In this document: positions 2,531 to 34,053 of the stretch, piece after piece
How positions within the stretch are numbered: position 1 is the stretch's first letter
How the letters are laid out: each line of letters starts with the position of its first letter
Virus record (IMG/VR): IMGVR_UViG_3300012979_000044
Coordinates: 2,073 to 66,072 of that record
DNA: 64,000 nt
Direction: 5' to 3' (one strand)
Source of the DNA: a virus
Lineage: Duplodnaviria > Caudoviricetes
Translations under genes and position numbers: made by a program
The notes under the pieces: generated by a model
Databases searched by the model: none
Seen by the model: only the letters and a program-made list of their open reading frames with translations
What the model was told of the DNA's origin: nothing

Positions 2531-2706
2531 GAGTCTTCTCCTTTCAAAAGAACGCTCAAAAACGAAAAGAGATCGATGACCGCAATTCAAGCAGTTTTCA
2601 TCTCTTCTCTTCATAAAAGGGCATGTTTTTTTCGCGAATCCAAAAATGTTGAGAGAGGGCAAAAAGAAAAGAGGCTGCAATAATTGCTAACCTCTGATCT
2701 TTGGTT

Positions 2707-2892
2707 TTAATTTTCAGTGTCCTTCGTCATTTCTTCAAGTTCTTTCATCTCTTTGTAACCTTCGATTATGATTGGTGCAAGACCTACCACAATACATACA
2801 CCGTTCAGTACAATTGTACCGAGCCAATGTTTCTTGTAGAAGCGTACTGTCTCCTTACATAATTCGCCGTAGTCTTTGAAAAATTCTTTCAT
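2707..2892 (-). CDS. Small membrane protein
   Basis: GGAGG RBS; one hydrophobic segment; lies between motif copy and terminator. Confidence 0.75.
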   Translation of the reverse strand: MKEFFKDYGELCKETVRFYKKHWLGTIVLNGVCIVVGLAPIIIEGYKEMKELEEMTKDTEN

Positions 2893-2994
2893 GATAAAAG
2901 ACCTCCTTTTAATTTTTTTCCATAATAGGAGGTGTAATTTGCGCGTATGAACAAAAGGAAGAGCCCGTGTTAGAGCTCTCCTATTAAGACAATA

Positions 2995-3354
2995 TCATTT
3001 GCTATTATTCAGATTTTCGCCTATGAGTATGAATTCCGTAAAATTACTTATGATTGCGTCTTCATCACATCCATCAAGCAAATGCTCGCCGACAACGCCT
3101 AAATCTTTCAGCATGTAGCCTGTCTCGTTTGGACCCGCTGAGAGAGCAAGCGTAATTACGTTTTTACCTTTGTATCTTTTATTCACACGTTCATTAATGG
3201 TACGTGAGACAATATTCATGATATCGTCGGGTTCTTTCGTTACACGCTTTGTCTTCAGCAGATAGCCAGCCGCTCCGCCAATTAAAGTGGCGCTTATCGT
3301 TAAGCATATTTCGCCGGTATGTTCCTTCAGCCAATTTTTAATTTTAGTACTCAT
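2995..3354 (-). CDS. Hypothetical protein with N-terminal TM segment
   Basis: Start moved to MSTKIKNW (GGAGG RBS). Confidence 0.75.
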   Translation of the reverse strand: MSTKIKNWLKEHTGEICLTISATLIGGAAGYLLKTKRVTKEPDDIMNIVSRTINERVNKRYKGKNVITLALSAGPNETGYMLKDLGVVGEHLLDGCDEDAIISNFTEFILIGENLNNSK

Positions 3355-3432
3355 ACTAAGTACCTCCTTTAATAATATTTGAGAATTGTCTTTTCTCATA
3401 ATATAAACTGTAAACCTCGCGTCCTTAGCCGT

Positions 3433-3860
3433 ACTTACACAACACTTACACAACACTTACACAACACTTACACAACACTCACACGAATCACACCCCAAAC
3501 CCCACCCAAAATCCCGCCAAAACCGCCCTTTGGTCAAAAACCCACTTTTTCGTCCAGTTTTCCTATTACTATATATATTTTTTAAAATTTAATAATTAAT
3601 AGAGAAAAAAAGTGGGAAAGTGGGCAGAAACGCCGCAAACGACGGTATATAGCCAAAAACTGCCTGCCCACTTTTAAAATGAAAGTGGGCAAAAGTGGGC
3701 AAAAGTGGGCAAAAACATGACAATAAATTTGTCAAGACCGTTTTTTGCCCAAAAATCGCCCTTACGAACTCGTCAAAAAGTGACCAAAACCCACTTTCTG
3801 GTCAAATAAAAATGACCATGGTCAAACAAAAGTGACCAAATCTTGACAATAAATTTGTCA
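3433..3860. repeat. Repeat-rich non-coding region, probable replication origin
   Basis: 4x ACTTACACAAC (3433-3476); direct and inverted AAAGTGGGC/CCCACTTT repeats (3537-3797); AT-rich tract near 3570-3610; 2x TGACAATAAATTTGTCA (3718-3734, 3844-3860). Confidence 0.65.
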
Positions 3861-3875
3861 TAAAAGTAAAAGGAA

Positions 3876-3895
3876 GAGGCTATGTTTCAAGCCTC
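3876..3895 (-). terminator. Intrinsic terminator with TGAAACAT loop
   Basis: GAGGCT-TGAAACAT-AGCCTC followed by T-rich tail. Confidence 0.7.
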
Positions 3896-4120
3896 GTTCA
3901 CTTTTCTCCATAAAAGATCTGGATCATAATCGAATAATTGAGCGTATGCGATACACCATACGTATGTAACTTTACCCGTATTTACATGACGCGCTACCAC
4001 CTGCCTCGAACAATGTAACTTCTTAGCTACATCACCACAAGACATGTCGTACTCAATCATGCTTATAAGTAACCACTCACCAAATGGTGTAGTCGGATTC
4101 ATGTCAAATACTGATTTCAT
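3887..4120 (-). CDS. Small HTH-like protein
   Basis: MSCGDVAKKLHCSRQVVARHV; GGAGG RBS before MKSVF. Confidence 0.65.
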   Translation of the reverse strand: MKSVFDMNPTTPFGEWLLISMIEYDMSCGDVAKKLHCSRQVVARHVNTGKVTYVWCIAYAQLFDYDPDLLWRKVNEA

Positions 4121-4172
4121 TGATCTCACCTCCTTCTATAACAGAATCTGCTAAGTACGCGTCCAAAACGAA

Positions 4173-4192
4173 GAGGCTATGTTTCAAGCCTC
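4173..4192 (-). terminator. Intrinsic terminator, identical to 3876-3895
   Basis: 22-bp identity AAGAGGCTATGTTTCAAGCCTC at 3874 and 4171. Confidence 0.7.
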
Positions 4193-4201
4193 ACTCGTAT
4201 C

Positions 4202-4654
4202 CTATGATTTTACATAGTCCGAAATATCGCCATCTACATTAAAGTCAAGTAATACCGCTTTTTCATATCCACACGGAACGCCTCCAGGAAGTTTACTGTA
4301 AAGACCAAAGTCCACAAAGCCGTCGCTAGGCACATCCTTCATACCATACAACCAGCCAACATTCTTAAATTCTTCCGACTCGGGTATTCCTAATGCTTCG
4401 TAAACCTCGCTCAAAAACAAATATCCTCTATCCTTCAACAACATATTAAAATAATGTTCCTGTTGCAGAATAAAGGCATAATTCGTTTCCGGGTTTCTCG
4501 TCCACATAGGACTACTTGCGTCGAAATATCTAGCATACTGACTGCAGCATAATCCAGAATCGCGTTCAACGGTCTTCGTTTCTGTTTTTGGTTCCTCCTT
4601 CTCTTCCATAATGTCGTCGAGTTCCATTTCAATGGTAATTTTAATTTTAGCCAT
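4202..4654 (-). CDS. Protein carrying the C-terminal half of the DUF6353-like family
   Basis: YARYFD...GYLFLSEVYEALG...VGW...VDFG...LLDFNVDG aligns by eye with the C-terminus of 22119-23054. Confidence 0.8.
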   Translation of the reverse strand: MAKIKITIEMELDDIMEEKEEPKTETKTVERDSGLCCSQYARYFDASSPMWTRNPETNYAFILQQEHYFNMLLKDRGYLFLSEVYEALGIPESEEFKNVGWLYGMKDVPSDGFVDFGLYSKLPGGVPCGYEKAVLLDFNVDGDISDYVKS

Positions 4655-4728
4655 GATACTTTTCTCCTTTTTAATATGATTAGTAACCTCTCGGTTCCAT
4701 AACAGCGTACGTAGCCCACGCGAAGAGC

Positions 4729-4771
4729 AAAACTAAAAGACCCATTTTTCAGGGTCTGATAGTTATTTGTC
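4729..4771. repeat. 43-bp exact direct repeat, copy 1 (copy 2 at 28038-28080)
   Basis: AAAACTAAAAGACCCATTTTTCAGGGTCTGATAGTTATTTGTC at both sites; includes a terminator hairpin. Confidence 0.9.
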
Positions 4772-4779
4772 AGTCTGTC

Positions 4780-4986
4780 TTAATCGATCTTAAGGTTGTC
4801 TTTACACCACATGTCGATTCTTCTCTGTACGTAATATACAGAACGATGCACCGCTTTAGCTATAAGTTCAACATCACAACCAACCTTGTGCATATGTATT
4901 ATACAAGCGTTAGTAACTATCTTGTTGATCCAATTGTGCTTTTCCTCCTTAGTCATCTTCTGTCCATCCTTAAAAATTTCGATCAT
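4780..4986 (-). CDS. Small HTH-like protein, paralog of 10662-10865
   Basis: MIEIFKDGQKMT vs MIEIIINGQKLT; IAKAVHRS vs IADTACCS. Confidence 0.7.
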   Translation of the reverse strand: MIEIFKDGQKMTKEEKHNWINKIVTNACIIHMHKVGCDVELIAKAVHRSVYYVQRRIDMWCKDNLKID

Positions 4987-5111
4987 GATAAATATCTCCT
5001 TTTCGATTAATGTAAGACATCACTGTCTTCATAAAGGAATACGTTCCTATCGCGTATCTAAGCAAAAAGAAAAGACCAAGTTGTTTTCACTCAGTCTCTT
5101 CTTTATCCCGT

Positions 5112-5357
5112 TCAGATTGCTACTTTTACTAAGTAAGTTTTGCCATTACTGTATTTAGCTTTTACCGTCTTAATTCCCATTCGTTTGATTGCCAAATGAA
5201 AACCTTTGTAGCAGTATATCGGATGTTTATATTCGTGCTCCTTGATATCCACTTCACAGATATCATGGTTTCCGTCCATAAACTCCTTTACCATCTCCTC
5301 AAGATAATGATGGCCGCTTTTACGGTTGGGAATTTTCTCCACAGGTACAAGTTTCAT
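5112..5357 (-). CDS. Hypothetical protein
   Basis: AGGAG RBS; lies within a motif-terminator cassette. Confidence 0.75.
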   Translation of the reverse strand: MKLVPVEKIPNRKSGHHYLEEMVKEFMDGNHDICEVDIKEHEYKHPIYCYKGFHLAIKRMGIKTVKAKYSNGKTYLVKVAI

Positions 5358-5418
5358 AGTAATAATCTCCTTTTAATATATATAGTAACCTAATAGGTTC
5401 CATAACAGTAGGTGAATA

Positions 5419-5808
5419 TTACGCGTCCTTAGCCTCTATTATGATATGCGATCGTCTGTTATATCTGTCTAGTACCGAAAAAGCTATCTGTTCTATTCTA
5501 TCGCGGTCATCGTCCGTCAGCCGATAATACAAATCAAAACCAGTAGATCCGTCGAAATCTTCAAAAACATAGTAATATGAACTCTGTCTAAACTCCTCAG
5601 GATAACGCTCGATCATTTCTACGAGATATATAGATACTAAATCGTAATACTTGTCTGGAACCACAGTCTGTCCAAGCTCATAATATTGATATGAATACAC
5701 CAATATACGCCTTTCCAAATGACCAATCATATCGATGATGGTAGCTCCTTCCCAAAAGATCATTAAACTATCAGTCTCAAATTTATATCCTTTACGTTCA
5801 ATAAGCAT
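5419..5808 (-). CDS. Stand-alone domain resembling the N-terminal (Ia) region of NAD+-dependent DNA ligase
   Basis: ILVYSYQYYELGQTVVPDKYYDL resembles the LigA YY-x6-D-x-x-YD pattern; no KxDG motif. Confidence 0.5.
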   Translation of the reverse strand: MLIERKGYKFETDSLMIFWEGATIIDMIGHLERRILVYSYQYYELGQTVVPDKYYDLVSIYLVEMIERYPEEFRQSSYYYVFEDFDGSTGFDLYYRLTDDDRDRIEQIAFSVLDRYNRRSHIIIEAKDA

Positions 5809-5861
5809 TTCGATTACCTCACTTTCATGAATTAGCCATTTGGTTAGTACGTATTTAATAT

Positions 5862-6074
5862 TTACTTACCTTTAAACTTCCATTTATACTTCAAAGGAAC
5901 TTTCTTCTTATCATGACCTACGTACATAGACACGACCTCAAAGTAATCCGGATTCAGTCTCTGCTGCTGTATGTATTCCTGCGCACCCTCGGGAGTCTGG
6001 AACGCCATGTACTCCAGATGAGATTTCCGTAATATAGCCATAGTTCGATTATTTCTTATAACGTATACGATCAT
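5862..6074 (-). CDS. Hypothetical protein
   Basis: Co-oriented ORF in gene string. Confidence 0.6.
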   Translation of the reverse strand: MIVYVIRNNRTMAILRKSHLEYMAFQTPEGAQEYIQQQRLNPDYFEVVSMYVGHDKKKVPLKYKWKFKGK

Positions 6075-6077
6075 GGT

Positions 6078-7208: not shown

Positions 7209-7298
7209 TTCTTTTTATTCTCCTTTTCGGTTTCTTTTTTAGCATTCTCGACATCCTTCTTGGATTTTCTCTGTAAATAATCCATATACTTCTCTGTC

Positions 7299-11899: not shown

Positions 11900-12220
11900 C
11901 TAGTCCGCCATATGTTCATACCAGTAGTCATCATTAGGATTGTAGTAGTCCGGTAATTCCCTCGTCGTCAAAATGATCGAGTAAGCGCTGTAACCGTTCA
12001 TGTAGAAATCATGTGACATATAAACGTGCGAGTCATCCGAATTATCGAAAAACTTGTAGTCATAGTCTTTATTTGATATCTCAGCTATTAACGCTTTTCT
12101 CGATTTTTCGGATGCGACCTCCGCATCGTTTTTATCATCATGTTCTGATAGAAGTTCATAACTCCATCCGTCATCAATGTGATCGGGGGAATATCCTTTG
12201 TAAATTTTAAATTTTTTCAT
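11900..12220 (-). CDS. Acidic hypothetical protein
   Basis: AGGAG RBS; in a cassette; shares a 45-bp leader with 32810 and 33711 genes. Confidence 0.75.
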   Translation of the reverse strand: MKKFKIYKGYSPDHIDDGWSYELLSEHDDKNDAEVASEKSRKALIAEISNKDYDYKFFDNSDDSHVYMSHDFYMNGYSAYSIILTTRELPDYYNPNDDYWYEHMAD

Positions 12221-22118: not shown

Positions 22119-23054
22119 TTACATCAGCTCCCAGATGTTGCCGTCGACATTGAAATCAAGGAGAATTACTCTTTCGTATCCGTTTACGAATGCACGAACA
22201 CGTTCTCTGTTAGTATCGTAGATACCAAAGTCAATATAGTTATCGCCGACAGGATTCTTTTCGTCATAAACCCAACCAACGACATGACCAGCCTTAGTTT
22301 CCGGAATACCAAGTGCTTTATATACGTCGTTAAGGAATACTCTTCCATCAGCTTTGAGTTTATTATTGAAATGTGCCTGTACTGTTTTCAGATAACACAG
22401 ATTGTGCTCAGGATCCTTAGTCCATCCGTTGCACCCCTCATCGAAGAAACGGCTGTAATCGGAATACGTATTAGGATCGTCGCAAACTTCCTTGATTTCC
22501 TTTACTACTTTTTCTTCACCTGTCTCTTCGTCGATCTCAGTATGCTCGAATTCTTTTGATTTGATGTTATAACGAAGCTCGTGATCAAGTTCCTTACCGA
22601 ATCTTTCTACGACACGGTTTCTGTAGTCCTTGAATGTGCCCTCTACTGTTGCATAAGCTGCTGCAAGTGCTGCATTACGCTTGTTGAGAATATTGTGTGA
22701 GCAAATAATAGCTGTGATTGACACCGCACCGAGTGCTACAGCTGGTGCGTATAACTTAGCGATCTTAACGCCAGTCTGAACATTTACGATTGCTGTATCC
22801 TTCTTGTGATCTTCTTCAGTATATTTATTAGAATATCCTTTTTCCTCAACATATGAATCGAACTTTTCGAGGTTTTCTTCACGCTCAGCGAGAACCTCAT
22901 CGATCTTAAGTGTCGCACGACAAGCAAGTACACCAGCACCTACAACACCAACAATGCCTGCACCTACAAGGATCGCAGGACTATGCTTCTTAGCTTTGAA
23001 GCCTACACGATGCAGGCCTCTTGACATTTTATTTTTAATAGCTTCGAGTTTCAT
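22119..23054 (-). CDS. DUF6353-like phage protein
   Basis: KKHSPAILVGAGIVG...AAYA...YR.RV...G.VFLNDVY. Confidence 0.8.
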   Translation of the reverse strand: MKLEAIKNKMSRGLHRVGFKAKKHSPAILVGAGIVGVVGAGVLACRATLKIDEVLAEREENLEKFDSYVEEKGYSNKYTEEDHKKDTAIVNVQTGVKIAKLYAPAVALGAVSITAIICSHNILNKRNAALAAAYATVEGTFKDYRNRVVERFGKELDHELRYNIKSKEFEHTEIDEETGEEKVVKEIKEVCDDPNTYSDYSRFFDEGCNGWTKDPEHNLCYLKTVQAHFNNKLKADGRVFLNDVYKALGIPETKAGHVVGWVYDEKNPVGDNYIDFGIYDTNRERVRAFVNGYERVILLDFNVDGNIWELM

Positions 23055-23343: not shown

Positions 23344-23940
23344 TTACAGTGCAGTAGCTCGTGGGAGCTTAATAATATAACCGTCTCTTGTACGTACAAC
23401 ATCTGCAGAACGCAGTGATGTCCATCCGTACTTATTGTCTGTATAGTCGCAGCTGAGACCAGCTAAGTCGTACATATCCGCAACTGAGACAGAACGGTAC
23501 GTATCGATAAGCTCGTCCATTCTATCGAGAACTTCCTCAGCTTCTCCACGACTGTCAAATACGATATTGTCGAAATCATATCCTCTACTTGTTCTGGAGC
23601 TACGGAATCTATCGTCTCGATCGTCAGAATATGATCTGTAAGATACATATCCGGAAGAGCTAGAACGTCCGCTTCTCTTTTTATCAGTTCCGAGAAGCAT
23701 CGCTACTCCGTCCGTAACGATATCAGATACCGCCTTTTTGATAGACGGAATAAGAATATCATTGACGATATAGCTACCTACATTACCAGCGTCTTCGCCG
23801 ATGAATGCGCTAGCGATTTTACTGCTCTTCTTAGACTTAACTTTTGACACCTTTCCTGTTACAACAGGCTTGTCAACTCTTTTTTCTCGTTCAGCAGCCT
23901 CTGCTTTTGATTTGTGTGAATTTGATTTGTAATCAGACAT
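23344..23940 (-). CDS. Conserved phage hypothetical protein
   Basis: Start moved to MSDYKSNS (AGGAG RBS); VSVADMYDLAG...YGW. Confidence 0.75.
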   Translation of the reverse strand: MSDYKSNSHKSKAEAAEREKRVDKPVVTGKVSKVKSKKSSKIASAFIGEDAGNVGSYIVNDILIPSIKKAVSDIVTDGVAMLLGTDKKRSGRSSSSGYVSYRSYSDDRDDRFRSSRTSRGYDFDNIVFDSRGEAEEVLDRMDELIDTYRSVSVADMYDLAGLSCDYTDNKYGWTSLRSADVVRTRDGYIIKLPRATAL

Positions 23941-23976
23941 GTCAATTACTCCTTTCGAATATAAAAAGAAAAGCCA

Positions 23977-23998
23977 AGACACTATGTTTCAAGTGTCT
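23977..23998 (-). terminator. Intrinsic terminator with TGAAACAT loop
   Basis: AGACACT-TGAAACAT-AGTGTCT followed by T-rich tail. Confidence 0.65.
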
Positions 23999-24011: not shown

Positions 24012-24377
24012 TCACTTCTTTTTCTTCTTTTTTGCAGGATACTTTTCAGTATCTTCCTCGATGTCTTCAACGTCCTCTTCTACTTCCTCGATGTCTTCAG
24101 CTTCGACTTCGATAATTTCTTCGTCTTCGACCTTCTTGCGTTTCTTCTTCTTAGGCTCGTCCTGTTCGTCCTTCTTGCTCTTAACCTTCTTTACGATTGC
24201 CTTAACGCCCTTCTGCACCAGTGCAAATGCACCGATTGCAGCAGCCGCTACGGCTACGTATTTGATTGTTTCGTTGCCTTCAGACTCACAGTCGCCTGTG
24301 TAGTCACAAGTGTCGAGACTATAATCTCCGTCATAGTTTGTCTCGGTTTCAAAATTAGTCATTGTTTCTTCGTTCAT
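24012..24377 (-). CDS. Membrane-anchored protein with highly charged Lys/Glu tail
   Basis: TM AVAAAAIGAFALV; poly-K and E/D tracts. Confidence 0.7.
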   Translation of the reverse strand: MNEETMTNFETETNYDGDYSLDTCDYTGDCESEGNETIKYVAVAAAAIGAFALVQKGVKAIVKKVKSKKDEQDEPKKKKRKKVEDEEIIEVEAEDIEEVEEDVEDIEEDTEKYPAKKKKKK

Positions 24378-24434: not shown

Positions 24435-25208
24435 TTATGAAAACTTCGCGAATCCGTACTTAGGGTCTTCTTTGAATCCAAGAACCAAGCACGGACGTCC
24501 GTCATCAGCTACAAGGGCATGGATATCTTCTTCGATCAAGCCCCAATCAATTTTCCAACCGATAGAATCACCGATATTGGTATGACTAAGGCCAAGTTCG
24601 TCGTAGAAATCGTTTAAGGACGCGCACATCGCCATATCGGTCATCATCGTATGATTTAAACGATTTATTGCACGTCTGATAGTTTCCATGTCAGAATCGA
24701 AATATCGATCGTTGAATGGATCGTAGCAAAGTGAAGTGCCTTTGCCAGTGATGATAACCTGATTTTTTGAGACTGGATTTTCTCTCAAGTGATCACGTTC
24801 TATTTCCTCTCTTATCGCTTTCTCCTTTTTCTCGCCTATAGTCTCTACGACTTTCTCTTTGTACTCAGCCAAAGCAGTTTCGGAGATTTTATAGGCGGTC
24901 GCAAGTGCAGCATTACGCTTAACATTTGTTGCACTCGCACCGATAAGACAACCAACAGAAGCAACACAAGTTACAGCAGCCGGAATATAAGGTTTCCATG
25001 CTACTTTTACTGTCTCAATAGGTGTAAGTTCATCAACATCGAGATATTCTTTCTCATCTTCGATTAACTGTAACGCTTTAGGCGTAGCCTTTACCGCCAT
25101 TACAGTCGTAGTCAACATACCAGCAATACCAATTCCAGTAAGTATCTCGGGACTGTGTTTTACGCATGCAGTTTTGAATGACGCACACGCAGCTTTAAAT
25201 TTTGACAT
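24435..25208 (-). CDS. DUF6353-like phage protein (paralog)
   Basis: KHSPEILTGIG...AVKATPKALQLIE...SLNDFYDELGL. Confidence 0.8.
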   Translation of the reverse strand: MSKFKAACASFKTACVKHSPEILTGIGIAGMLTTTVMAVKATPKALQLIEDEKEYLDVDELTPIETVKVAWKPYIPAAVTCVASVGCLIGASATNVKRNAALATAYKISETALAEYKEKVVETIGEKKEKAIREEIERDHLRENPVSKNQVIITGKGTSLCYDPFNDRYFDSDMETIRRAINRLNHTMMTDMAMCASLNDFYDELGLSHTNIGDSIGWKIDWGLIEEDIHALVADDGRPCLVLGFKEDPKYGFAKFS

Positions 25209-25266
25209 GATAATGTCTCTCCTTTCAGAAAAACAAAAAGGACCCAAATATGAGTCCCTTTACGGT

Positions 25267-25482: not shown

Positions 25483-26238
25483 TTAGTAGTATCGAAAGGC
25501 TTCGTCTGGGCGATACGGCATTGTAATAATGATAGTTTCTAGACCGTCATCGTTAACTGTTTTTTCGAAATTAAATTCAATCCAGTTATAGCCAAAGAAA
25601 CTCCAATTATAAGATTCTTTAGACCAACCAATTAAGTCGCCACCCTTCATTTTTTTAACACCGAGTAGTTCGTACCAGTCGTTGACTGTGACTTCTTCTA
25701 ACAAACTGAATAACTTGTTAAGTTCGTATTCAGCTAGTTTTACTCGCTCAGGATCAAGTTCGAAATATCGTCCTGAGAACTCATCAAAATATAATTTTTC
25801 GCCATTATCAAGAGGTCCTTTGTGTTCGTACCAGTCGTTAATAGCGTCTTCAATTTCCTTATCAGCATCTTCACCATAACGTTCTGCGACTTGTTTTTTA
25901 TATTCACGATAACGTTCGCTAAGTAATGCGTAAGAAGACATTAAAGACGCCTGCTGTTTCTTATTCAAAGCATTTGCTCCGAAAATACAAGCGATTGTCG
26001 CTGCTCCAGTTGTAACGGCTGGAATATACGGTTTCCAAGCGACCTGCACTTTTTCTACAGGAGTTAACTCTTCACCTTTAACTTCTTCAGCTTCTTCGAT
26101 CAACTGTAGCGCTTTAGGTGTAGCCTTTACCGCCATTACAGTCGTAGCGATAACGCCGCCAGCTCCGATCACGGTAAGAATAGTTGAACCGTGTTTGTGT
26201 ATTACTTTTTTCGCTTTGTGCACAAGTTTACATCTCAT
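25483..26238 (-). CDS. DUF6353-like phage protein (paralog)
   Basis: KHGSTILTVIGAGG...AVKATPKALQLIE...TVNDWYELLG. Confidence 0.8.
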   Translation of the reverse strand: MRCKLVHKAKKVIHKHGSTILTVIGAGGVIATTVMAVKATPKALQLIEEAEEVKGEELTPVEKVQVAWKPYIPAVTTGAATIACIFGANALNKKQQASLMSSYALLSERYREYKKQVAERYGEDADKEIEDAINDWYEHKGPLDNGEKLYFDEFSGRYFELDPERVKLAEYELNKLFSLLEEVTVNDWYELLGVKKMKGGDLIGWSKESYNWSFFGYNWIEFNFEKTVNDDGLETIIITMPYRPDEAFRYY

Positions 26239-26270
26239 CGTTCTCACCCTTTCAAAATATAAAAGTAAAA

Positions 26271-26337
26271 GAAATAGTGTAAGACTTGAACTTACCCTTC
26301 TAGTTTCCTAGCTGCTCCCCAGTGAGCTTTCTATTTC
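26271..26337 (-). ncRNA. tRNA-like RNA with the anticodon loop replaced by a GAAA tetraloop
   Basis: GAAATAG/CTATTTC acceptor stem, GCTC-ACTGGG-GAGC D arm, CTAG-GAAA-CTAG, GTAAG-TTCAAGT-CTTAC T arm; motif copy directly upstream, T tract directly downstream. Confidence 0.65.
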
Positions 26338-26407
26338 TCATAATACGGCATGAAATCTTCGCGAAAATGAAAACGGAAGAGAACCGAAGTTCAATTCCGC
26401 ATATGTA

Positions 26408-26758
26408 TTAGCTCTCCTTTACCTCAGGCTTGTCAAGTTTCTTTGTAATCTTGTCAAGCTTGGTATGAAGTTCTGCCATATGAATGAATAATGCCTTCTG
26501 GTTCTCTATCGCCAAGTCCATGTTGCGTTCGATTTTTGTAATCTTCTCTCCAATGGTGTCATAGAAGTCACACATTTCTGTCGTAGCATCTTTACTTACC
26601 TTCACAGCCTTCATCATCAGTGAAAATGCCTTAACCGCTGCCTCGTCCTCGGCCATATCAGCCATCAGGTCGATATCCATCGCGCTAAGCGCCATCTTCA
26701 TAGCTTCGTCCATGATTTCGTTAAGTTCCTTTGCCATTCCCTTAAAATTTGTGTTCAT
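26408..26758 (-). CDS. Coiled-coil hypothetical protein
   Basis: AGGAG RBS; in a cassette. Confidence 0.75.
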   Translation of the reverse strand: MNTNFKGMAKELNEIMDEAMKMALSAMDIDLMADMAEDEAAVKAFSLMMKAVKVSKDATTEMCDFYDTIGEKITKIERNMDLAIENQKALFIHMAELHTKLDKITKKLDKPEVKES

Positions 26759-27467: not shown

Positions 27468-27487
27468 GAGGGTGTGTTTCAACCCTC
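27468..27487 (-). terminator. Intrinsic terminator with TGAAACAC loop
   Basis: GAGGGT-TGAAACAC-ACCCTC followed by T-rich tail. Confidence 0.7.
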
Positions 27488-27505: not shown

Positions 27506-27895
27506 TCACTTCTTAAATAGTCGGTTAAAGAAGTTTCTGCCTGCCACCGTTGTGATTGTTCCTGTTTCTTCGAACTTGATGCTCTTCAGTGTTCCCCAGA
27601 TTGTAAGTCCTGCAGGGATTGCGATACCTAACGCCTGGAGACAGTTCTGAGTCTTATTGTTCTTCTTCTCGTTTTCAGCCTTAGCTTCGTCGATCTCATT
27701 CTTACTCTTTTCGAGTTCGAATTCATCGTCAGCTTTGCGTTCTTCGAGTTCAAGCTTCTTAAGCTCAATTTCTCTGTCCATCAGCTTGGTGATCGCATCG
27801 ACCGCGGTCTTATGCTCATCAGTTCCTACCTGAATCTTCGAAAGTTCTTCGAATTCCTCTTTGATTTCTTCGGTGAGTAAATGTTTTGTACTCAT
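27506..27895 (-). CDS. Coiled-coil protein with a C-terminal hydrophobic segment
   Basis: GGAGG RBS; in a cassette. Confidence 0.75.
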   Translation of the reverse strand: MSTKHLLTEEIKEEFEELSKIQVGTDEHKTAVDAITKLMDREIELKKLELEERKADDEFELEKSKNEIDEAKAENEKKNNKTQNCLQALGIAIPAGLTIWGTLKSIKFEETGTITTVAGRNFFNRLFKK

Positions 27896-28309: not shown

Positions 28310-28531
28310 TTAGGACTCTCCCTTCCACATAATGCCTTTAACACTAGGTAAATAATCCAATAAATCAATTGCTTGTTCTCTGTTCATCTCTGTTAAAATA
28401 TCATATCGCTTCCATACTACGACATAACTGTGATTCAATACAGTTACACCCATAGATTTAAGTTTTTCTAATACTTTTTCTAATGATTCATGTGTACAAA
28501 CAGTAATGTTTATTTTCTTAGTTTTACCCAT
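28310..28531 (-). CDS. Hypothetical protein
   Basis: Start moved to MGKTKK, downstream of motif 28549. Confidence 0.65.
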   Translation of the reverse strand: MGKTKKINITVCTHESLEKVLEKLKSMGVTVLNHSYVVVWKRYDILTEMNREQAIDLLDYLPSVKGIMWKGES

Positions 28532-28563
28532 TTTTAAACACATCCTTTCGTAATAGGACATGT

Positions 28564-28782: not shown

Positions 28783-28915
28783 TTATTTGTACCTCTTCTT
28801 CACTGTTTTGTTCTTTGATCATTTTTAAAGCTTTAATAACCATACCACTCGCAGTTACGAGTAATGCTAGTTTAATAATCTTGTTTTCCAAATATAATCC
28901 CTCCTAGAAAAATAA

Positions 28916-29037
28916 AAGAGAAAGGTTAGGCTATTCCATTCCCCGTATTACTCGACCGAGATTTTGGTCGTACGTCCAGTGTATTACTGGCACCAGATTT
29001 TTCCGCTTTCGCCCTCTTGTGCGCCATGCTTTCTCTT
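28916..29037 (-). ncRNA. Candidate structured small RNA (~122 nt)
   Basis: Between motif 29038 and a T tract; 9-bp end-to-end stem AAGAGAAAG/CTTTCTCTT; internal hairpins CCAGT/ACTGG and CGACC/GGTCG; no RBS-led ORF. Confidence 0.55.
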
Positions 29038-29074
29038 CATAATACAACATGATCATATCGCGAAAAATAAAAGA

Positions 29075-29203: not shown

Positions 29204-29231
29204 ATAATACGTCATGTTTTTATCGCGAATA

Positions 29232-29648
29232 TTAATCTCGCGCTTTATCCAATAGCCAAAAGAATCTTCTATATCTGTCGTAGTAAATATCCCGACTACA
29301 TGGTATCCCCATCTTCGTCCGTAGACTATTATATGACAACCCCTCTGTTACACCTTTCAAAATATAAATGGCTAGATCGCAGTCTGTTTCTTTTGCGACT
29401 TTTTCTATCATTTCTATTCTAGATAAAAATAACTGTCTCTTCTCGGCTATATGAGCCGTCGAATCGCTTTTCAGTCCCGTGTACGTACGTGTGCTGCTAT
29501 ATGAACTCGTGCGATAAAATCCGATTTCAGAATATAGTCTTTTCCAATCCGGATATTGTAAACAGAAATGTTTCAATTCGTAATGTCTGTGCTTACTTAT
29601 CCAATATCGATTTTTCTTTGATAGTTCTGGTTTTGTTTGAGCTTGCAT
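29232..29648 (-). CDS. Probable transcriptional regulator (RinA/ArpU-like)
   Basis: YELKHFCLQYPDW...ILKGVTEGLSY...YYDRYRRFFWLL C-terminal HTH-like region; GAGG RBS before MQAQ. Confidence 0.6.
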   Translation of the reverse strand: MQAQTKPELSKKNRYWISKHRHYELKHFCLQYPDWKRLYSEIGFYRTSSYSSTRTYTGLKSDSTAHIAEKRQLFLSRIEMIEKVAKETDCDLAIYILKGVTEGLSYNSLRTKMGIPCSRDIYYDRYRRFFWLLDKARD

Positions 29649-29745
29649 CACCTCGATCCTCCTTGTTAACAAATTTGATTCGTATCTTAGCATCGTACTT
29701 ACGACTAAATATAACGCTCATAATCTCTTCTATTCTCGACTTCAC
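29593..29745 (-). CDS. Small hypothetical protein (start uncertain)
   Basis: KSRIEEIMSVIFSRKYDAKIRIKF; first gene left of the switch; overlaps the next gene by 56 nt. Confidence 0.4.
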   Translation of the reverse strand: MKSRIEEIMSVIFSRKYDAKIRIKFVNKEDRGDASSNKTRTIKEKSILDK

Positions 29746-29795
29746 CGATTTTCGTAACCTCCCTTCCAAATCGGTAGCATAAGTATACCACGGTT

Positions 29796-29863
29796 GTCGC
29801 ATAATGCGACTGTAAGTTACTGGAAAACCCATGATACGCGACTTAAAAGTTGCATAATGAGAC
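29796..29863. promoter_or_regulatory. Two 15-bp palindromic operators in the lysis/lysogeny switch
   Basis: GTCGCATAATGCGAC (29796-29810) and GTTGCATAATGAGAC (29849-29863); the second overlaps candidate TTGCAT-N18-TAATAT upstream of the repressor. Confidence 0.6.
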
Positions 29864-29884
29864 TACGCTTGTGTAATATATTAT

Positions 29885-30301
29885 TTGGGAGGTGAATATA
29901 TGGATAGTACCGAAATGGGAAAGCGAATGAAACAGCGTAGGACCGACATGGAAATATCAGTTATGGATTTGGTTGATGCGACTGGATTATCAAAAGCTAC
30001 ACTACATCGATACGAGAATGGTTCGATAAAACATATAAAGACGCCAGTGTTGCAAGTAATCGCGTTTCGTCTCGGCGTATCGTTAGAATGGCTTATGGGA
30101 GAAACAGACAACATGGATCGAACAGTTTATACTAACCAGGATATACATGAAATTTTGTCCTACGCTCTAGATTTAATTCGCGATAACTATTTCACGAACA
30201 GAGGAGAACCGGTGGATAAAAACACAGCAAAAATCATTGAATTATCATTGGCATATTTGCTGACAATACTAGATACGAAAAGGGGAAATCATCATGAATG
30301 A
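29885..30301 (+). CDS. XRE-family (CI-like) repressor
   Basis: RMKQRR...SVMDLVDATGLSKATLHRYENG...IAFRLGVSLEWLMG. Confidence 0.85.
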   Translation: MGGEYMDSTEMGKRMKQRRTDMEISVMDLVDATGLSKATLHRYENGSIKHIKTPVLQVIAFRLGVSLEWLMGETDNMDRTVYTNQDIHEILSYALDLIRDNYFTNRGEPVDKNTAKIIELSLAYLLTILDTKRGNHHE

Positions 30302-30623
30302 ACATCAAGAGAAAATCGTAAATATAATTGCGGGTATTGAGAGAGAACGAATCAAACAGCACATGGCAAAACCAAAGAAAGAACCTGTAGCCGTATATAC
30401 ACGAGTCGGTAGTAAAGAGCAGCTTGGCAGAACGGAGAATGAGAAAATCCAAAAAGTAATTGACGATGCTACAGAACGACTTTTCAAATATCTCGAACAG
30501 GGTCGCATCGACGAGATGCAGTTCATCGAATATAACAAAAATATGTATAAAATTTGTGAGGACGAGATGAAGAAATGTGCAGCCCGCATAGCCGACAAGT
30601 TTGGAGGAAATATAAATGGTTAG
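30294..30623 (+). CDS. Hypothetical protein with a degenerate serine-recombinase active-site motif
   Basis: VAVYTRVGSKEQ vs integrase AGLYERVSTDEQ. Confidence 0.7.
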   Translation: MNEHQEKIVNIIAGIERERIKQHMAKPKKEPVAVYTRVGSKEQLGRTENEKIQKVIDDATERLFKYLEQGRIDEMQFIEYNKNMYKICEDEMKKCAARIADKFGGNING

Positions 30624-31992
30624 GATTCTCCGAGCGGGCTTGTACGAACGTGTAAGCACTGATGAACAGAAATTAAAAGGATATTCAATAGCTGCTCAAA
30701 AAGATAACCTTGAAGAATATTGTCAGAAAAATCGTATGAAAATCGTAGATCACTATACGGACGAGGGAATATCCGGAAGTAAACCGCCTTTGAAAAGACC
30801 GGATCTCAAACGACTACTTGACGATGTTGAAGTCGGACGAATAGATATAATTCTTTTCACAAAACTCGATAGATGGTTTCGGTCGGTAAAAGAATATTTT
30901 AAAGTACAAGAAATATTGGACGACAACAAAGTTGAGTGGAAAGCTATTCACGAGAATTACGATACAACTACCGCCAACGGACAAATGGCTATAACTATAT
31001 TTTTAGCTGTGGCTCAGAACGAACGTGATCGAACTGCAGAACGTATAAAAACAGTAATTGACCATAAACTAAAAAATAGAGAAGCTTGTTTCAGTTACAA
31101 ATCGATACCAATGGGATATAAAAAGGAACCAGATGAAAACGGCATACAGCGACTCGTTAAAGATCCAGAAACACAACAAGCAGTACAGGAATTTTGGGAT
31201 ATACTACTCGAATCCAATAACTTGAATAAAGCTATTCGTCATGTTACGCAAAATTATGATATAACGAGAGAATGGCAATCGTGGAGTCGCATGACGCAAA
31301 GTGATTTTTATTGCGGGATTCACAAAGGCGTTCAGGATTTTTGTGAACCGTACGTATCCCCCGAGAAATGGCTTAAATATAATCAATCTAAGCCAATCAA
31401 AGCGACACCTAGCGGACGAATATATTTGTTTCGTGGGTTGATTCGTTGCGAGGGGTGCGGACGTAAACTCTCAGGTTCGGCTCAGACCTACCACGGACGT
31501 AACGCAGAATATAAAGGTAAAGAATATAAAGCGTATCGTTGTAATGCTCGTTGTAAAACTTGTGATAATCCTACGACCGTCGCTGAGTTAAGATTGGAAA
31601 CGCATTTACTTGACAACTTAGAGAAATATTTAGAAACTGAGATTGTGTTAGCCGAAGTCGAAATAAATAAACCAGCACCGAAACCGAAGATAAATATAAA
31701 CAAATTAAAAGAACGAAGAAGACGTCTTGAGATCGTTTATCTCGCTGGTAATAAAACAGACGATGAATATTTCAAAGAAGATGCTGAGTTGAAACTTGCA
31801 ATTGAGAAAGCTGAGAAAGAGAAACCACCTGAACCAAGAGATATAACACCTTTGAAAGAGATGCTTGAAACTGATTTCAGATCTTTGTATGAGAAGTTTG
31901 ATGACGAGGAGAAACAGCAGTTCTGGTTGAGTCTCATTAAAGAGATAATCATCGAAAATAAGAAAATAAAAAGAGTCAAATTCTTTAACTAA
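30616..31992 (+). CDS. int: Large serine recombinase (integrase)
   Basis: YERVSTDEQ, YTDEGISG...RP, KLDRW.R, recombinase domain, CEGCG...C..C..C zinc ribbon, coiled coil. Confidence 0.92.
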   Translation: MVRILRAGLYERVSTDEQKLKGYSIAAQKDNLEEYCQKNRMKIVDHYTDEGISGSKPPLKRPDLKRLLDDVEVGRIDIILFTKLDRWFRSVKEYFKVQEILDDNKVEWKAIHENYDTTTANGQMAITIFLAVAQNERDRTAERIKTVIDHKLKNREACFSYKSIPMGYKKEPDENGIQRLVKDPETQQAVQEFWDILLESNNLNKAIRHVTQNYDITREWQSWSRMTQSDFYCGIHKGVQDFCEPYVSPEKWLKYNQSKPIKATPSGRIYLFRGLIRCEGCGRKLSGSAQTYHGRNAEYKGKEYKAYRCNARCKTCDNPTTVAELRLETHLLDNLEKYLETEIVLAEVEINKPAPKPKININKLKERRRRLEIVYLAGNKTDDEYFKEDAELKLAIEKAEKEKPPEPRDITPLKEMLETDFRSLYEKFDDEEKQQFWLSLIKEIIIENKKIKRVKFFN

Positions 31993-32001
31993 TTAAGATT
32001 A

Positions 32002-32029
32002 GCTTCCCTATTTCAGGGAGGCTTTTCTT
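32002..32029 (+). terminator. Intrinsic terminator after the integrase
   Basis: GCTTCCCT-ATTTC-AGGGAGGC-TTTTCTT. Confidence 0.75.
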
Positions 32030-32081
32030 ATATACAATAAATGAAAAAGGGAAAGCCCGTGTAGGCTACCCTTTTGTTGGA

Positions 32082-32390
32082 TTACTCCACTTCCTCATCT
32101 TCGTCCTCGAAATAAGGATCGTAATCGTATGAGCTTTCTCGTTTCAGGAATTCGTCGCTGTTGAGGTAGTTCACACCGGTTTCAGCATTGTAGATCTCGT
32201 ATTCGTTATCGTAGAAATCATATATACGGGAGTCGCTAGAGTCAAATCGTTTGATCGTACCGTCCTTATATGTAACGACCGCAATTTCATCTCCAGTAAT
32301 CACCTCGATATCGATTGTCCCGATATTCTCGATATCGCCAATGTCGTGTGTGACTTTTCTATCAGCGTAGTCCATCAATGTAATAGTCAT
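32082..32390 (-). CDS. Acidic hypothetical protein
   Basis: AGGAG RBS; cassette with motif 32435 and terminator near 32049-32073. Confidence 0.75.
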   Translation of the reverse strand: MTITLMDYADRKVTHDIGDIENIGTIDIEVITGDEIAVVTYKDGTIKRFDSSDSRIYDFYDNEYEIYNAETGVNYLNSDEFLKRESSYDYDPYFEDEDEEVE

Positions 32391-32474
32391 AATTTTAATC
32401 TCCTTTTATGAAAATAATTTTTTGGAATTTTATCCATAAAAGATAAGAATATCACCGCGAGCAGATTATACTTT

Positions 32475-32530
32475 TCATTATGGTTTAACCTGTCGTCACC
32501 AGTTGGTGTTGTGTAGTTAGTCCATAATGA
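32475..32530. other. Candidate attP site for the serine integrase
   Basis: 56-bp dyad TCATTATGG-N13-CACCA-[GT]-TGGTG-N13-CCATAATGA, exactly symmetric about a central dinucleotide; about 480 bp from int. Confidence 0.65.
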
Positions 32531-32558
32531 GAAACGCAAAAGGAAAGGGCAGAAACCC

Positions 32559-32810
32559 TTAACCTTCGCTATTCGTTAAACTATCGAATATCATCTGTGC
32601 TTCATCGATAGTATAATCTCTAACGTAGTCAGCGTTGTCCGCCTCTCCTTTTACAATGTCCGCATAAGCTTCTGCTCGGTGGAGTTCGCCTTCTGGTGTA
32701 AATGAATTCTATGCTTCCAGTCCGATACCTATAAGTATACCAGCAACCAATAATGCCAGTCCTATAAGCATACCTACTAAAACCTCAATGATTCCTTTTA
32801 CATTTTTCAT
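32559..32810 (-). pseudogene. Membrane protein gene interrupted by an in-frame TAG (32709-32711)
   Basis: MKNVKGIIEVLVGMLIGLALLVAGILIGIGLEA*NSFTPEGELHRAE...SEG*; frame stays open 49 codons past the TAG up to the terminator. Confidence 0.6.
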
Positions 32811-32889
32811 AAAACATTCTCCTTTATAAATATGATGTAAAGCTTTTGCTTTCATAAAGGAGACGGTTCATATCGCGAATGCAAAAATA

Positions 32890-32986
32890 AAATAGCGTGT
32901 GGCATGCGTTCCCTACTCATTGCTGAGTCATAGTCGTCCACATCTTACAGAATAAACGTTCTTATGGTCGCTTTTCTAACTATTTC
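32890..32986 (-). ncRNA. Candidate structured small RNA (~97 nt)
   Basis: Between motif 32986 and a T tract; AAATAG/CTATTT end-to-end stem; ACTCA-GCAA-TGAGT GNRA hairpin; no ORF. Confidence 0.5.
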
Positions 32987-33049
32987 ATAGAAGGACATAA
33001 TATAGTCGCGAGATGAAAAATAAGAGGGTCTGTTGCGACCCCCTCACTT

Positions 33050-33364
33050 TTATGAGAATAATTTTTCGATCATTTTTACTTTGTCCGATGACCATGTCGT
33101 CTGTGATTCTGCGATCTTAATTACAGCAGCGTATATATCGTAAGAACATCCGCTTTTCATAGCTGATATAGCTTTTTGTTTGTCTGAAGACCACATACCT
33201 GAATTCATGATCGCGTCAACGGCTTCGGAAAATCCGCTGTCGTCACACGTATGAAATTCATCAATATGTGTTTGTTCGCAACAACAAGCCACTACACCAG
33301 CCAGTATCACACCTCCTACGACACCGATGCCTTTTAAGACTTTCTCAGTATTGATTTTCATCAT
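33050..33364 (-). CDS. Membrane-anchored protein with duplicated WSSDK motif
   Basis: TM GIGVVGGVILAGVVA; GMWSSDKQKAI / TTWSSDKVKMI. Confidence 0.75.
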   Translation of the reverse strand: MMKINTEKVLKGIGVVGGVILAGVVACCCEQTHIDEFHTCDDSGFSEAVDAIMNSGMWSSDKQKAISAMKSGCSYDIYAAVIKIAESQTTWSSDKVKMIEKLFS

Positions 33365-33465
33365 AGTTTCCTCCTTAAAGTTTTTTTAATCGAGATTCCT
33401 CTCATAAAGGGGCGTGTTATACGTGCGAAAAGAAAAATAGGAGTAGCGAATGCCACTCCGTGTGA

Positions 33466-33711
33466 TTACTTATAGCGTACTGTTCCAACTTGTGTTGGGA
33501 AATCTTTTCCGTTTGTATATATGTATATGAGAAAGTATTCGTCTGAAGTCTCGCAGGGCTCGCACGTGTAATAATCATACTCGTCTTCGTCCCAGTTATG
33601 TTCAGCTAAATACTGTTCGCATAGTTCTTCCTCGGAATACTCAACATTGTTGCATCCCGCCATAGTAATCATAGTGCAAATTACTCCTATTAAAGCCATA
33701 AACTTTTTCAT
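33466..33711 (-). CDS. Small acidic lipoprotein
   Basis: MKKFMALIGVICTMITMAGC lipobox; AGGAG RBS. Confidence 0.7.
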   Translation of the reverse strand: MKKFMALIGVICTMITMAGCNNVEYSEEELCEQYLAEHNWDEDEYDYYTCEPCETSDEYFLIYIYTNGKDFPTQVGTVRYK

Positions 33712-33824
33712 GATAATTTCTCCTTTATAAATATAATGTAAAGCTTTTGCTTTCATAAAGGAGGACGTTCATATCGCGTAGAGCAAAAATAAGAGGCTGT
33801 GTTTCAAACCCCTTATTGTTTTTG

Positions 33825-33998
33825 TCATTTGTAATCGTAGTAACTATGATGTTTTCTTCTTCGGTCATATCTGTCTTTGCTATCCTTTCGTAAGTCTTCT
33901 TCGATTTTAATTACACCGCATAATGTAATGAGTGCCATCGTTTCGAATCCAATTACGAAACCAATACACATTCTGCCGATATTTTTAATTGTGTTCAT
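33825..33998 (-). CDS. 57-aa membrane peptide
   Basis: Hand-translated MNTIKNIGRMCIGFVIGFETMALITLCGVIKIEEDLRK...; AGGAG RBS; in a cassette. Confidence 0.6.
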   Translation of the reverse strand: MNTIKNIGRMCIGFVIGFETMALITLCGVIKIEEDLRKDSKDRYDRRRKHHSYYDYK

Positions 33999-34053
33999 AG
34001 TTATTCAACTCCTTTCATTAAAGGAGCTGTTACGGACGCGAATATACGATATA

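Follow-up and report, generated by a model that had tools for sequence, protein, structure and literature searches.

A conserved early-region motif in a temperate gut phage is a likely promoter family, probably read by the phage's own single-chain RNA polymerase

We analyzed a window of 64,000 nucleotides (nt), bases 2073 to 66072 of the 66,072-bp IMG/VR record IMGVR_UViG_3300012979_000044 (100% complete according to CheckV), which belongs to a temperate gut phage of ca. 66 kb with nearly all of its genes on the minus strand. The left part of the window carries 27 copies of a motif with the core CGCG-N16-TTATG, all in the same orientation. This motif is very probably a promoter, and comparison of sequences indicates that these promoters are probably read by the phage's own 937-amino-acid (aa) polymerase, of the YonO/QDE-1 class (PHROG 4291), with the G of TTATG as the probable first transcribed base. 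The 27 sites would then be the promoters of early and middle genes and of small RNAs, with no host sigma factor involved. Each site would be one contiguous element, from about -25 to +7, running into the initiating G and the purines behind it. Helix-turn-helix (HTH) modules of the polymerase, one of them similar to sigma region 4, would read the upstream duplex part, and the T-rich segment from -6 to -1 would melt. Ordinary hairpin-plus-U terminators would close the units, so that cassettes composed of promoter, ribosome-binding site (RBS), gene, and terminator stand in a row.

The core CGCG-N16-TTATG occurs in 17 exact copies, which all lie on the minus strand, from 2612 to 33778. In 100 dinucleotide shuffles the expectation was 0.42 exact copies, the largest count in any shuffle was 3, and none of the 100 reached 17. 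With up to one mismatch allowed, there are 34 matches against 11.9 expected. A weight matrix, trained on the scored sites themselves, recovers 27 real sites with 18 to 37 bits, all on the minus strand at 2612 to 34040, which reproduces the 17 exact and 10 single-mismatch copies left of 34.1 kb that an earlier note on this DNA had described. The other seven one-mismatch matches are at chance level, with less than 8 bits (16572, 21824, 34748, and 58594 on the minus strand; 32458, 34104, and 36108 on the plus strand). The plus strand has one weak site only (11.2 bits), and no site of at least 8 bits is found in the 30-kb late region, the late structural operon being without a copy.

The consensus is T-CGCG-(A/T-rich N7)-CAT-N3-yCT-w-TTATG-RAA, ca. 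28 bits over ca. 30 bases. With the G of TTATG as +1, information remains above background from -25 to about +7, so that the element is longer than first described. The conserved positions are T at -25, CGCG at -24 to -21, an A/T-rich spacer with W at -15 and -14, CAT at -13 to -11, C at -7, T at -6, TTAT at -4 to -1, the G, and then three purines. The C at spacer position 8 (-13), already pointed out for 25 of the 27 copies, is indeed present in that number and is followed by A in 22. Around the G, the counts are 24/27 for T at -3, 27/27 for A at -2, 26/27 for T at -1, and 26/27 for G at +1. The copies are listed below with position, strand, match to the core, context (ORF, open reading frame), and matrix score.

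34016-34040, minus: one mismatch (TAATG); G(+1) at 34016; RBS at +3; ORF 33825-33998 (57 aa); 32.5 bits
33754-33778, minus: exact; after a terminator with a GAAACAC loop; 43-nt leader with 5' hairpin; ORF start at 33711; 33.8 bits
33403-33427, minus: one mismatch (CGCA); after a terminator; 39-nt leader with hairpin from +1; ORF 33050-33364; 29.1 bits
32986-33010, minus: one mismatch (CTATG), no C at -13; after a strong terminator; ORF-less RNA; 24.2 bits
32853-32877, minus: exact; 43-nt leader with 5' hairpin; short ORF; 31.4 bits
32435-32459, minus: exact core, no C at -13, the weakest copy; 45-nt leader with 5' hairpin; ORF 32082-32390; 18.2 bits
29203-29227, minus: exact; first copy downstream of the lysogeny module, directly after ORF 29232-29693; 36.4 bits
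29038-29062, minus: exact; ORF-less RNA of ca. 125 nt; 33.0 bits
28549-28573, minus: one mismatch (TTACG); RBS at +3; ORF start near 28531; 29.5 bits
28266-28290, minus: one mismatch (CGCA); after a strong terminator; RBS at +3; small ORF; 28.4 bits
27941-27965, minus: exact; 46-nt leader with hairpin from +1; ORF 27506-27895; 29.6 bits
27430-27454, minus: one mismatch (TAATG); after a terminator with a GAAACAC loop; RBS at +3; 54-aa ORF; 33.6 bits
26808-26832, minus: exact; 50-nt leader with hairpin from +1; ORF 26408-26758; 32.6 bits
26339-26363, minus: exact; cloverleaf-like ORF-less RNA; 34.4 bits
25457-25481, minus: exact; RBS at +3; 57-aa ORF; 34.2 bits
24426-24450, minus: exact; 49-nt leader with hairpin from +1 (-7.6 kcal/mol); ORF 24012-24377; 32.4 bits
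16228-16252, minus: one mismatch (ATATG); directly after the primase-polymerase gene; then RBS and mini-ORF; 31.0 bits
13829-13853, minus: one mismatch (TAATG); RBS at +3; 66-aa ORF; 32.5 bits
12262-12286, minus: exact; after the helicase gene; 42-nt leader with 5' hairpin; ORF 11900-12220; 35.1 bits
11824-11848, minus: one mismatch (CGTG); after a terminator; RBS at +2; 57-aa ORF; 25.7 bits
5401-5425, minus: exact; 44-nt leader with hairpin from +1; ORF 5112-5357; 27.6 bits
5030-5054, minus: exact; after a terminator; 44-nt leader with 5' hairpin; ORF 4780-4986; 29.0 bits
4698-4722, minus: exact; after a terminator; 44-nt leader with hairpin from +1; ORF 4202-4654; 25.6 bits
4137-4161, minus: one mismatch (TTATA); after a terminator with a GAAACAT loop; RBS at +4; 77-aa ORF; 23.9 bits
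3397-3421, minus: exact; 43-nt leader with hairpin from +1; ORF start at 3354; 25.7 bits
2921-2945, minus: exact; after a terminator; ORF 2707-2892; 34.1 bits
2612-2636, minus: exact; top score; heads the endonuclease/HNH/Cas4 exonuclease/polymerase operon; 36.7 bits

The surroundings of the copies are those expected of promoters. Most of them have a hairpin plus T-run within ca. 10 nt, about half lying a few bases past a stable one, and terminator-like sites are enriched about threefold (21 against 7.8 expected and 13 against 3.6 expected). On the downstream side, ca. 10 copies have a short leader, with AAAGGAG from +2 or +3 and the start codon near +17, and 12 copies have a long leader that is opened by a small hairpin and places the start codon at +39 to +50. 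Three copies lead to an ORF-less structured RNA ending in a U-run, and some of the short ORFs found after other copies are of uncertain reality. The motif-aligned contexts confirm the claimed position just upstream of an RBS plus short ORF or of a structured RNA. The 0 to 10 nt between T-run and motif, and the distance from motif to RBS, leave no space for a second promoter.

Five of the terminator hairpins have stems of the GAGGCT/AGCCTC type and a common loop, TTGAAACAY, and appear to be a duplicated terminator family:

33788-33817, minus: terminator of the TTGAAACAY family
27468-27487, minus: terminator of the same family
ca. 23970-23995, minus: terminator of the same family
4173-4192, minus: terminator of the same family
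3876-3895, minus: terminator of the same family

Directly upstream of the copy ending at 3421, at the usual place of the terminator, there are instead ca. 2.5 copies of a tandem repeat, GTGTAAGTGTT (ca. 3425-3460, minus). In the leader of the polymerase operon (2540-2612, minus), UUUUCGUUUUU comes after a hairpin, and the two might serve as an attenuator before this operon. A leader of this kind was recognized by a crude test in 18 of the 83 leaders of relatives, so it is not a general feature.

The place of the first transcribed base can be approached from the RNA structures. In 13 of the 27 leaders pairing in the 5' hairpin begins at the G of TTATG or one base further on, with stem sequences that differ, and in a sliding window the number of hairpin starts peaks at offsets -1 and 0 and drops to between 0 and 2 beyond ±4. 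The closing stems of the three ORF-less RNAs begin at +1, +1, and +2, at or just after the G as had been claimed (MFE, minimum free energy):

26262-26339, minus: cloverleaf-like ORF-less RNA; 9-bp closing stem from G(+1), then U-run; MFE -19.7, z -1.98
28905-29038, minus: branched ORF-less RNA of ca. 125 nt; 10-bp closing stem from G(+1), then U-run; MFE -34.9, z -1.83
32890-32986, minus: branched ORF-less RNA of ca. 97 nt; closing stem from +2; next copy directly after; weak fold, z -0.45

The leader hairpins and these stems give indirect support to the proposal that TTATG spans the start site. In the cloverleaf-like RNA, one hairpin resembles a T-arm (loop UUCAAGU), and a tetraloop takes the place of the anticodon loop. 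Neither ARAGORN nor Rfam gave a match in the window, so the ORF-less cassettes do not correspond to known RNAs.

Hairpins starting at the G would equally suit 5' ends produced by RNA processing, and a motif present in many intergenic copies of one orientation resembles the stoperators of Cluster A mycobacteriophages; this phage does code for a CI-type repressor. We nevertheless consider it very improbable that the motif is a processing site or a repressor operator and not a promoter. Terminators delimit the cassettes, and the gaps of 0 to 10 nt are too short for another promoter. The conserved positions extend over 30 bp at fixed spacing, and the part before the G has no conserved RNA structure. 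As for an operator, the motif persists in phages 1706, Egad, Vardy, and Scarif, which are lytic and have no annotated repressor or integrase. A sigma-54 promoter was also considered and rejected, as CGCG is found at -24 to -21 and CA at -13/-12 in place of GG at -24 and GC at -12; the motif family is also present in phages of Actinobacteria and Lactococcus, which are not known to have sigma-54.

The candidate reader is encoded at the left end of the window, where the earlier note had placed it (ORF 1-1061), and is followed in the genome by a small gene:

3-1061, minus: first 353 codons of the polymerase gene; full gene at 320-3133 of the genome, 937 aa
genome 63-323 (outside the window), minus: 86-aa protein, PHROG 4303, directly after the polymerase gene

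The protein matches PHROG 4291 over its full length (E = 0; 1159 bits), its residues 16-936 aligning with positions 8-907 of the 909 in the profile. Its GADFDGD sequence, at aa 521-527, does not vary among 47 aligned relatives. It also has a sigma-region-4-like HTH at aa 102-125 (Pfam Sigma70_r4_2) and a C-terminal HTH at aa 898-935 (Pfam HTH_23, HTH_24, HTH_38). An AlphaFold (AF2) model built from the 47 relatives has a predicted local distance difference test score (pLDDT) of 83, and its top Foldseek match is QDE-1 (E 9e-9). Weaker matches are the nonvirion RNA polymerase (RNAP) of P23-45/P74-26 (gp64), plant RDR2, P23-45 gp96, crAss gp66, and bacterial beta'; among the P23-45-type RNAPs, 8f72 and 8f5m are at ca. 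1e-6 and 8h2n is weaker. On this evidence, ORF 3-1061 is the N terminus of a 937-aa two-barrel RNA polymerase with a QDE-1/YonO-like fold. No family of the T7-type, Pol I-fold polymerases was found among the ORFs scanned, and the two-barrel protein is the sole polymerase-like transcription enzyme. The family is large, with 2,200 representatives at 50%-identity clustering and 251 isolated phages (44 to 58% identity), and its matches include many human-gut Clostridia prophages and SEA-PHAGES actinophages. The polymerase nature of the 1706 family had been predicted earlier (Ruprich-Robert and Thuriaux 2010, PMC2919709; Koert et al. 2021, bioRxiv 10.1101/842583), and what we predict for the PHROG 4291 enzyme is DNA-dependent RNA synthesis from specific promoters.

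What links the motif to this enzyme is that they travel together. In a relative whose polymerase is 85% identical, the 10 kb upstream of the gene contain 14 copies, and the late genes in the 10 kb on its downstream side contain none. FP_oengus, a Faecalibacterium phage with a different host, 50% GC, and a polymerase with 47% identity, has 14 copies, all on the coding strand of the early region. An alignment-based genome scan provided 80 further Clostridia loci from prophages and metagenome-assembled genomes (Lachnospiraceae, Ruminococcus, Hungatella, Blautia, and other assemblies). They contain 189 matrix sites on the polymerase strand and 1 on the opposite strand; a weight-matrix scan of this genome and its relatives had been suggested as a check. 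A copy ca. 950 nt upstream of the polymerase gene, heading its operon, is present in nearly all 80 loci, and the N-terminal as well as the C-terminal HTH is conserved in them.

In diverged form, the motif is also found with the polymerase in more distant phages. Lactococcus phage 1706 has ca. 11 coding-strand copies, represented by TTCGCA-N7-CAT-N3-CTATAGTA-G. Arthrobacter phage Egad has 10 copies (representative, CGCR-N7-CAC-N3-TTATAAT-G), Streptomyces phage Scarif 9 (TCGCA-N7-CAC-N3-CTATAGT-G), and Gordonia phage Vardy 8 (TCGCA-N7-CAC-N3-CTATAAT-G); the opposite strand was checked in these three and has none. The architecture common to phages with hosts from two phyla is CGCR-N7-CA followed by 11 to 12 nt and the G, the spacing between the C of CA and the G being 14, or 15 in 1706. 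The gene order endonuclease/HNH/Cas4 exonuclease/polymerase is likewise kept in FP_oengus, 1706, Egad, Scarif, and Vardy. As a negative counterpart, FP_Lagaffe, a phage of the same host species as FP_oengus with a sigma factor instead of the polymerase, has no site (maximum, 5.2 bits). In a control with five isolate genomes containing prophages of this kind, 39 of the 61 matches to a loose 13-base pattern lay within ca. 6 prophage regions; the remaining 22 were spread over ca. 19 Mb and lacked the A-rich spacer, and the reversed control pattern gave 7 matches.

As the motif is conserved over phages of Clostridia, Lactococcus, Arthrobacter, Gordonia, and Streptomyces, reading by the one DNA-binding polymerase that they have in common is the simpler explanation. 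The identification of this two-barrel enzyme as the reader, one of the possibilities first put forward, is thus well supported by the comparison. The best-scoring copy heads the polymerase's own operon, which would make the supply of polymerase self-reinforcing.

In phage collections, a near-identity DNA search found no close relative of the phage, and neither did a single-protein scan of IMG/VR. The faecal scaffold MT835495.1, flagged "UNVERIFIED" and with a 58% identical polymerase, is syntenic over its first 30 kb only and has two copies. The matching part consists of the polymerase operon and structural genes, and the other 39 kb, without early-region homologues, are possibly host DNA or a chimera.

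A number of observations weigh against reading by the phage polymerase, and the first of them concern the host. In Egad, Vardy, and Scarif, the hexamer from -6 to -1 is TATAAT, TATATT, or TATAGT, and 11 of the 27 copies here have TATTAT or TATAAT. As TATAAT or TATAGT, the actinophage segment would make a good -10 for sigma-A. The Vardy element has in fact been published as five copies of a sigma-70-type promoter with a TATAAT -10 (PMC9671010). The motif could then be a host sigma-A promoter of the -10-only or extended type, in which the upstream bases are UP- or discriminator-like context. We find this hardly credible for several reasons. Position 2 of the hexamer, where A is the key -10 base, is A in just 11 of 27 copies here and 43 of 177 in relatives, the Clostridia phages having mostly TTTTAT with a C at -7 and FP_oengus mostly CTTTAT. 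No -35 is seen at 16 to 18 bp, and neither hexamer is consistent, in agreement with the claim that a consistent TAnnnT -10 and a TTGACA are lacking. A sigma-70 consensus scan showed no enrichment (28 against 36 expected at 24 to 36 kb, and 18 against 16.5 at 1 to 6 kb). A start 6 to 8 nt downstream of the hexamer would remove part of the RBS in the ca. 10 short-leader copies, and the invariant CGC (-24 to -22), the C at -13, and the G at +1 play no part in sigma-A recognition. Finally, few copies of the motif occur in host chromosomes outside prophages, and FP_Lagaffe has none.

The second group of objections concerns what gives the specificity. A small conserved partner protein, and not the fused HTHs, could supply it, and in the 80 loci the preference for G or A at -21 showed no pattern when compared with the HTH recognition helices, an analysis in which the matrix is biased towards G. 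The 86-aa protein, whose gene follows that of the polymerase in this phage, FP_oengus, 1706, Egad, Scarif, and Vardy, is a possible polymerase cofactor. Going one step further, the promoters could be read by the host core RNAP redirected by a small phage factor (sigma-like, appropriator, or activator), as with MotA/AsiA of T4 and gp28 of SPO1, and the two-barrel protein would act otherwise or later. The polymerase gene stands at the far end of the region that needs to be transcribed, and there are conserved early proteins of unassigned function, including the 86-aa protein and the 212-aa ORF 23344-23982, which would suit such a factor. We judge this unlikely, although less so than a host sigma-A promoter. 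None of the 51 early ORFs matches a sigma-factor family in Pfam, and the factor would have to dock on the divergent cores of Clostridia, Lactococcus, and three actinobacterial genera, whereas the polymerase is the one conserved protein with DNA-binding modules.

The early proteins common to the five comparators (FP_oengus, 1706, Egad, Scarif, and Vardy) are the polymerase, the 86-aa protein, the Cas4 and VRR-Nuc nucleases, the helicase, the annealing protein, the primase-polymerase, the DUF6353 paralogs, and the 212-aa ORF. ORF 29232-29693 (PHROG 11237) is not one of them. It is the first lytic-strand gene beside the repressor and precedes the first copy both here and in FP_oengus, which speaks for it as a redirecting factor, and its position in both temperate phages means that it may matter for induction. 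It has no relative in 1706, Egad, Scarif, and Vardy, which keep the motif, so it cannot be the universal reader, and the proposal of an activator at 29232-29648 is weakened. The DUF6353 proteins were also considered as hidden sigma-like factors and rejected, as they look membrane anchored and their model (pLDDT 68) has no fold match in the PDB. Each genome has three or four of these paralogs, in which a hydrophobic helix at the N terminus is combined with a small alpha/beta domain at the C terminus; in this phage they are:

22119-23054, minus: DUF6353 paralog
24435-25247, minus: DUF6353 paralog
25483-26247, minus: DUF6353 paralog

Returning to the phage polymerase as the reader, the remaining objections concern the start site, the state of the literature, and the first molecules of the enzyme. 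Among 174 related sites the +1 hairpin signal is a modest local peak (19 sites), which is why we favor the G of TTATG as the start with some reserve. The literature searched holds no start-site data, biochemistry, or promoter for any member of the PHROG 4291 family. The supply of the first molecules is the main difficulty: within the early region the polymerase gene comes last, behind a promoter of its own type, and a promoter scan revealed no convincing sigma-A promoter near the gene. The options for this supply are delivery in the virion, read-through from the repressor-controlled region, and a weak host start.

Packaging in the virion is only hinted at. The N terminus of the polymerase, predicted to be disordered, contains the family-invariant peptide LxHYG...SGRYPxGSG (LEHYGVKRRSGRYPYGSG, ca. 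990-1061), and the DUF7211 motif LxH[YHS]G.KGMKWG stands at the start of three otherwise unrelated proteins encoded among the structural and lysis genes:

34054-34512, minus: DUF7211-motif protein
59342-59842, minus: DUF7211-motif protein
61628-62383, minus: DUF7211-motif protein

The likeness may reflect a shared targeting or cleavage tag, and we take it as a lead towards packaging, not as evidence. In the record of 1706, several ORFs are labelled "structural protein" and ORF75 is not among them; the Arthrobacter phage paper has no relevant proteomics (PMC5513430).

A bolder proposal is that the enzyme is self-sufficient, a "polymerase plus sigma in one chain" whose own HTHs would find duplex promoters with no host or phage cofactor and which would start at the G of TTATG. 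We put this forward tentatively, as a possibility somewhat short of even. With the best copy in its own operon, such an enzyme would form an autocatalytic on/off switch committing the prophage to lytic growth, and its first molecules might arrive in the virion, given the resemblance of the LxHYG peptide to the DUF7211 proteins of the structural module. If true, relatives of cellular RNAPs would have a further, new way of recognizing promoters, and the enzyme would offer a compact orthogonal expression system for Gram-positives. The 30-bp consensus with its many natural variants makes it testable, with one protein and one DNA fragment, how a sigma-less minimal RNAP relative finds promoters, and the motif and polymerases are candidate orthogonal pairs. 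The link between them would also explain the cassette layout of these genomes.

The rest of the genome provides the frame for the promoter array. Structural and lysis genes span from 64 kb down to 34 kb and include terminase, portal, tail genes, and a tape measure of 2367 aa. A single gene of 609 aa (53043-54872, minus) codes for a fusion of prohead protease and major capsid protein, like the one described for Arthrobacter clusters AM and AU. The early and replication region, from 29.7 kb to the left end, has many small ORFs and codes for a 1411-aa helicase-primase-polymerase, a helicase, a single-strand annealing protein, and a Cas4 exonuclease. Between both, a lysogeny module on the plus strand breaks up the array on the opposite strand, and the strand skew reverses at 30 to 32 kb. 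Two minus-strand ORFs that overlap the lysogeny genes (29881-30114 and 30234-30659) are probably spurious. The lysogeny module and the genes preceding the polymerase in its operon are:

29885-31992, plus: lysogeny module
29885-30301, plus: Cro/CI-type repressor, 138 aa
30294-30623, plus: 109-aa ORF between repressor and serine integrase
30616-31992, plus: serine integrase
2237-2530, minus: VRR-Nuc-like endonuclease, polymerase operon
1737-2216, minus: HNH endonuclease, polymerase operon
1065-1721, minus: Cas4-family exonuclease, polymerase operon

A relative assembled across the junction of the termini (window 63840-64000; genome 1-63) has nine additional bases (CGCCCGCCT) between them, which suggests that the genome has cohesive ends of 9 nt; the related Arthrobacter cluster AM phages have 9-base 3' overhangs (PMC5513430). 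Once the cohesive ends join, the polymerase operon is followed directly by the late operon, and no obvious terminator separates them, so that read-through into the late operon is conceivable. Just upstream of the first late gene there is an inverted repeat of ca. 23 bp enclosing ca. 70 to 110 nt (L017:13100-13420 in the relative), whose pairing is kept in both phages despite their differing sequences.

Phage polymerases with private promoters are a known kind of system; what is added here is a proposed promoter consensus for a large family of predicted polymerases. The link between polymerase and motif, the cross-phylum consensus, and the start-site assignment are absent from the literature searched, and the prediction of the polymerase itself is already in print. 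The enzymes of 1706, FP_oengus, and the actinophage supercluster have the same DxDGD center, the two HTHs, and the place after the Cas4 exonuclease that ends the replication module. The papers on the 1706 family predict the enzyme only, with no promoter family (PMC2919709; bioRxiv 10.1101/842583), and the word "promoter" is absent from Koert et al. (bioRxiv 10.1101/842583). The 50-bp intergenic motif of Gordonia phage Vardy (cluster DJ) is the same element, with the same CGCR-to-CA and CA-to-G spacing. Its copies read 8 times TCGCA-N7-CAC-N3-CTATAATG-AGACCCC on the coding strand. The publication made no link to the phage polymerase (gp89, annotated as hypothetical protein) or to phages of other phyla, and our assignment would correct its sigma-70 reading.

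The T7-family promoter is a 23-bp element from -17 to +6 that ends in TATA-G. The element described here is similar in being highly specific, contiguous into the start, AT rich from -4 to -1, followed by G and purines, and present in many copies on one strand, with a presumably autocatalytic copy near the polymerase gene. Unlike in T7, the enzyme is two-barrel and not Pol I-like, the element reaches -25, and the sequences are unrelated. In the late promoters of the phiKZ nonvirion RNAP, T-3 A T G+1 extends over the start site (Yakunina et al. 2015, PMC4666361), so the analogy drawn in the earlier note, a TATG over +1, is correct as published. That enzyme is likewise sigma-less and two-barrel, and T-3, A-2, T-1, and G+1 are nearly invariant here too. 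It has five subunits with split beta/beta' and a 4-nt motif without upstream boxes, whereas here a single 937-aa chain goes with an element of ca. 30 bp that has CGCG and CAT boxes.

The single-chain two-barrel RNAPs gp64 and gp96 of P23-45 each have their own motif, and the case was argued in the same way, from a motif upstream of start sites that accompanies the polymerase in related phages (Chaban et al. 2024, PMC10770324). Those enzymes have mapped starts, chromatin immunoprecipitation, and crystal structures, one is fused to the tape measure in the virion, their motifs are different, and no HTH is mentioned. No promoter is known for any single-chain YonO-like enzyme in the literature searched. 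YonO of SPbeta is likewise a single-chain two-barrel enzyme of a temperate Firmicutes siphovirus with a private start site (Forrest et al. 2017, PMC5467207). It is distant, serves one late operon from an undefined promoter sequence, and no HTH is mentioned for it (PMC5467207), whereas the phage analyzed here has 27 early and middle units with a defined consensus.

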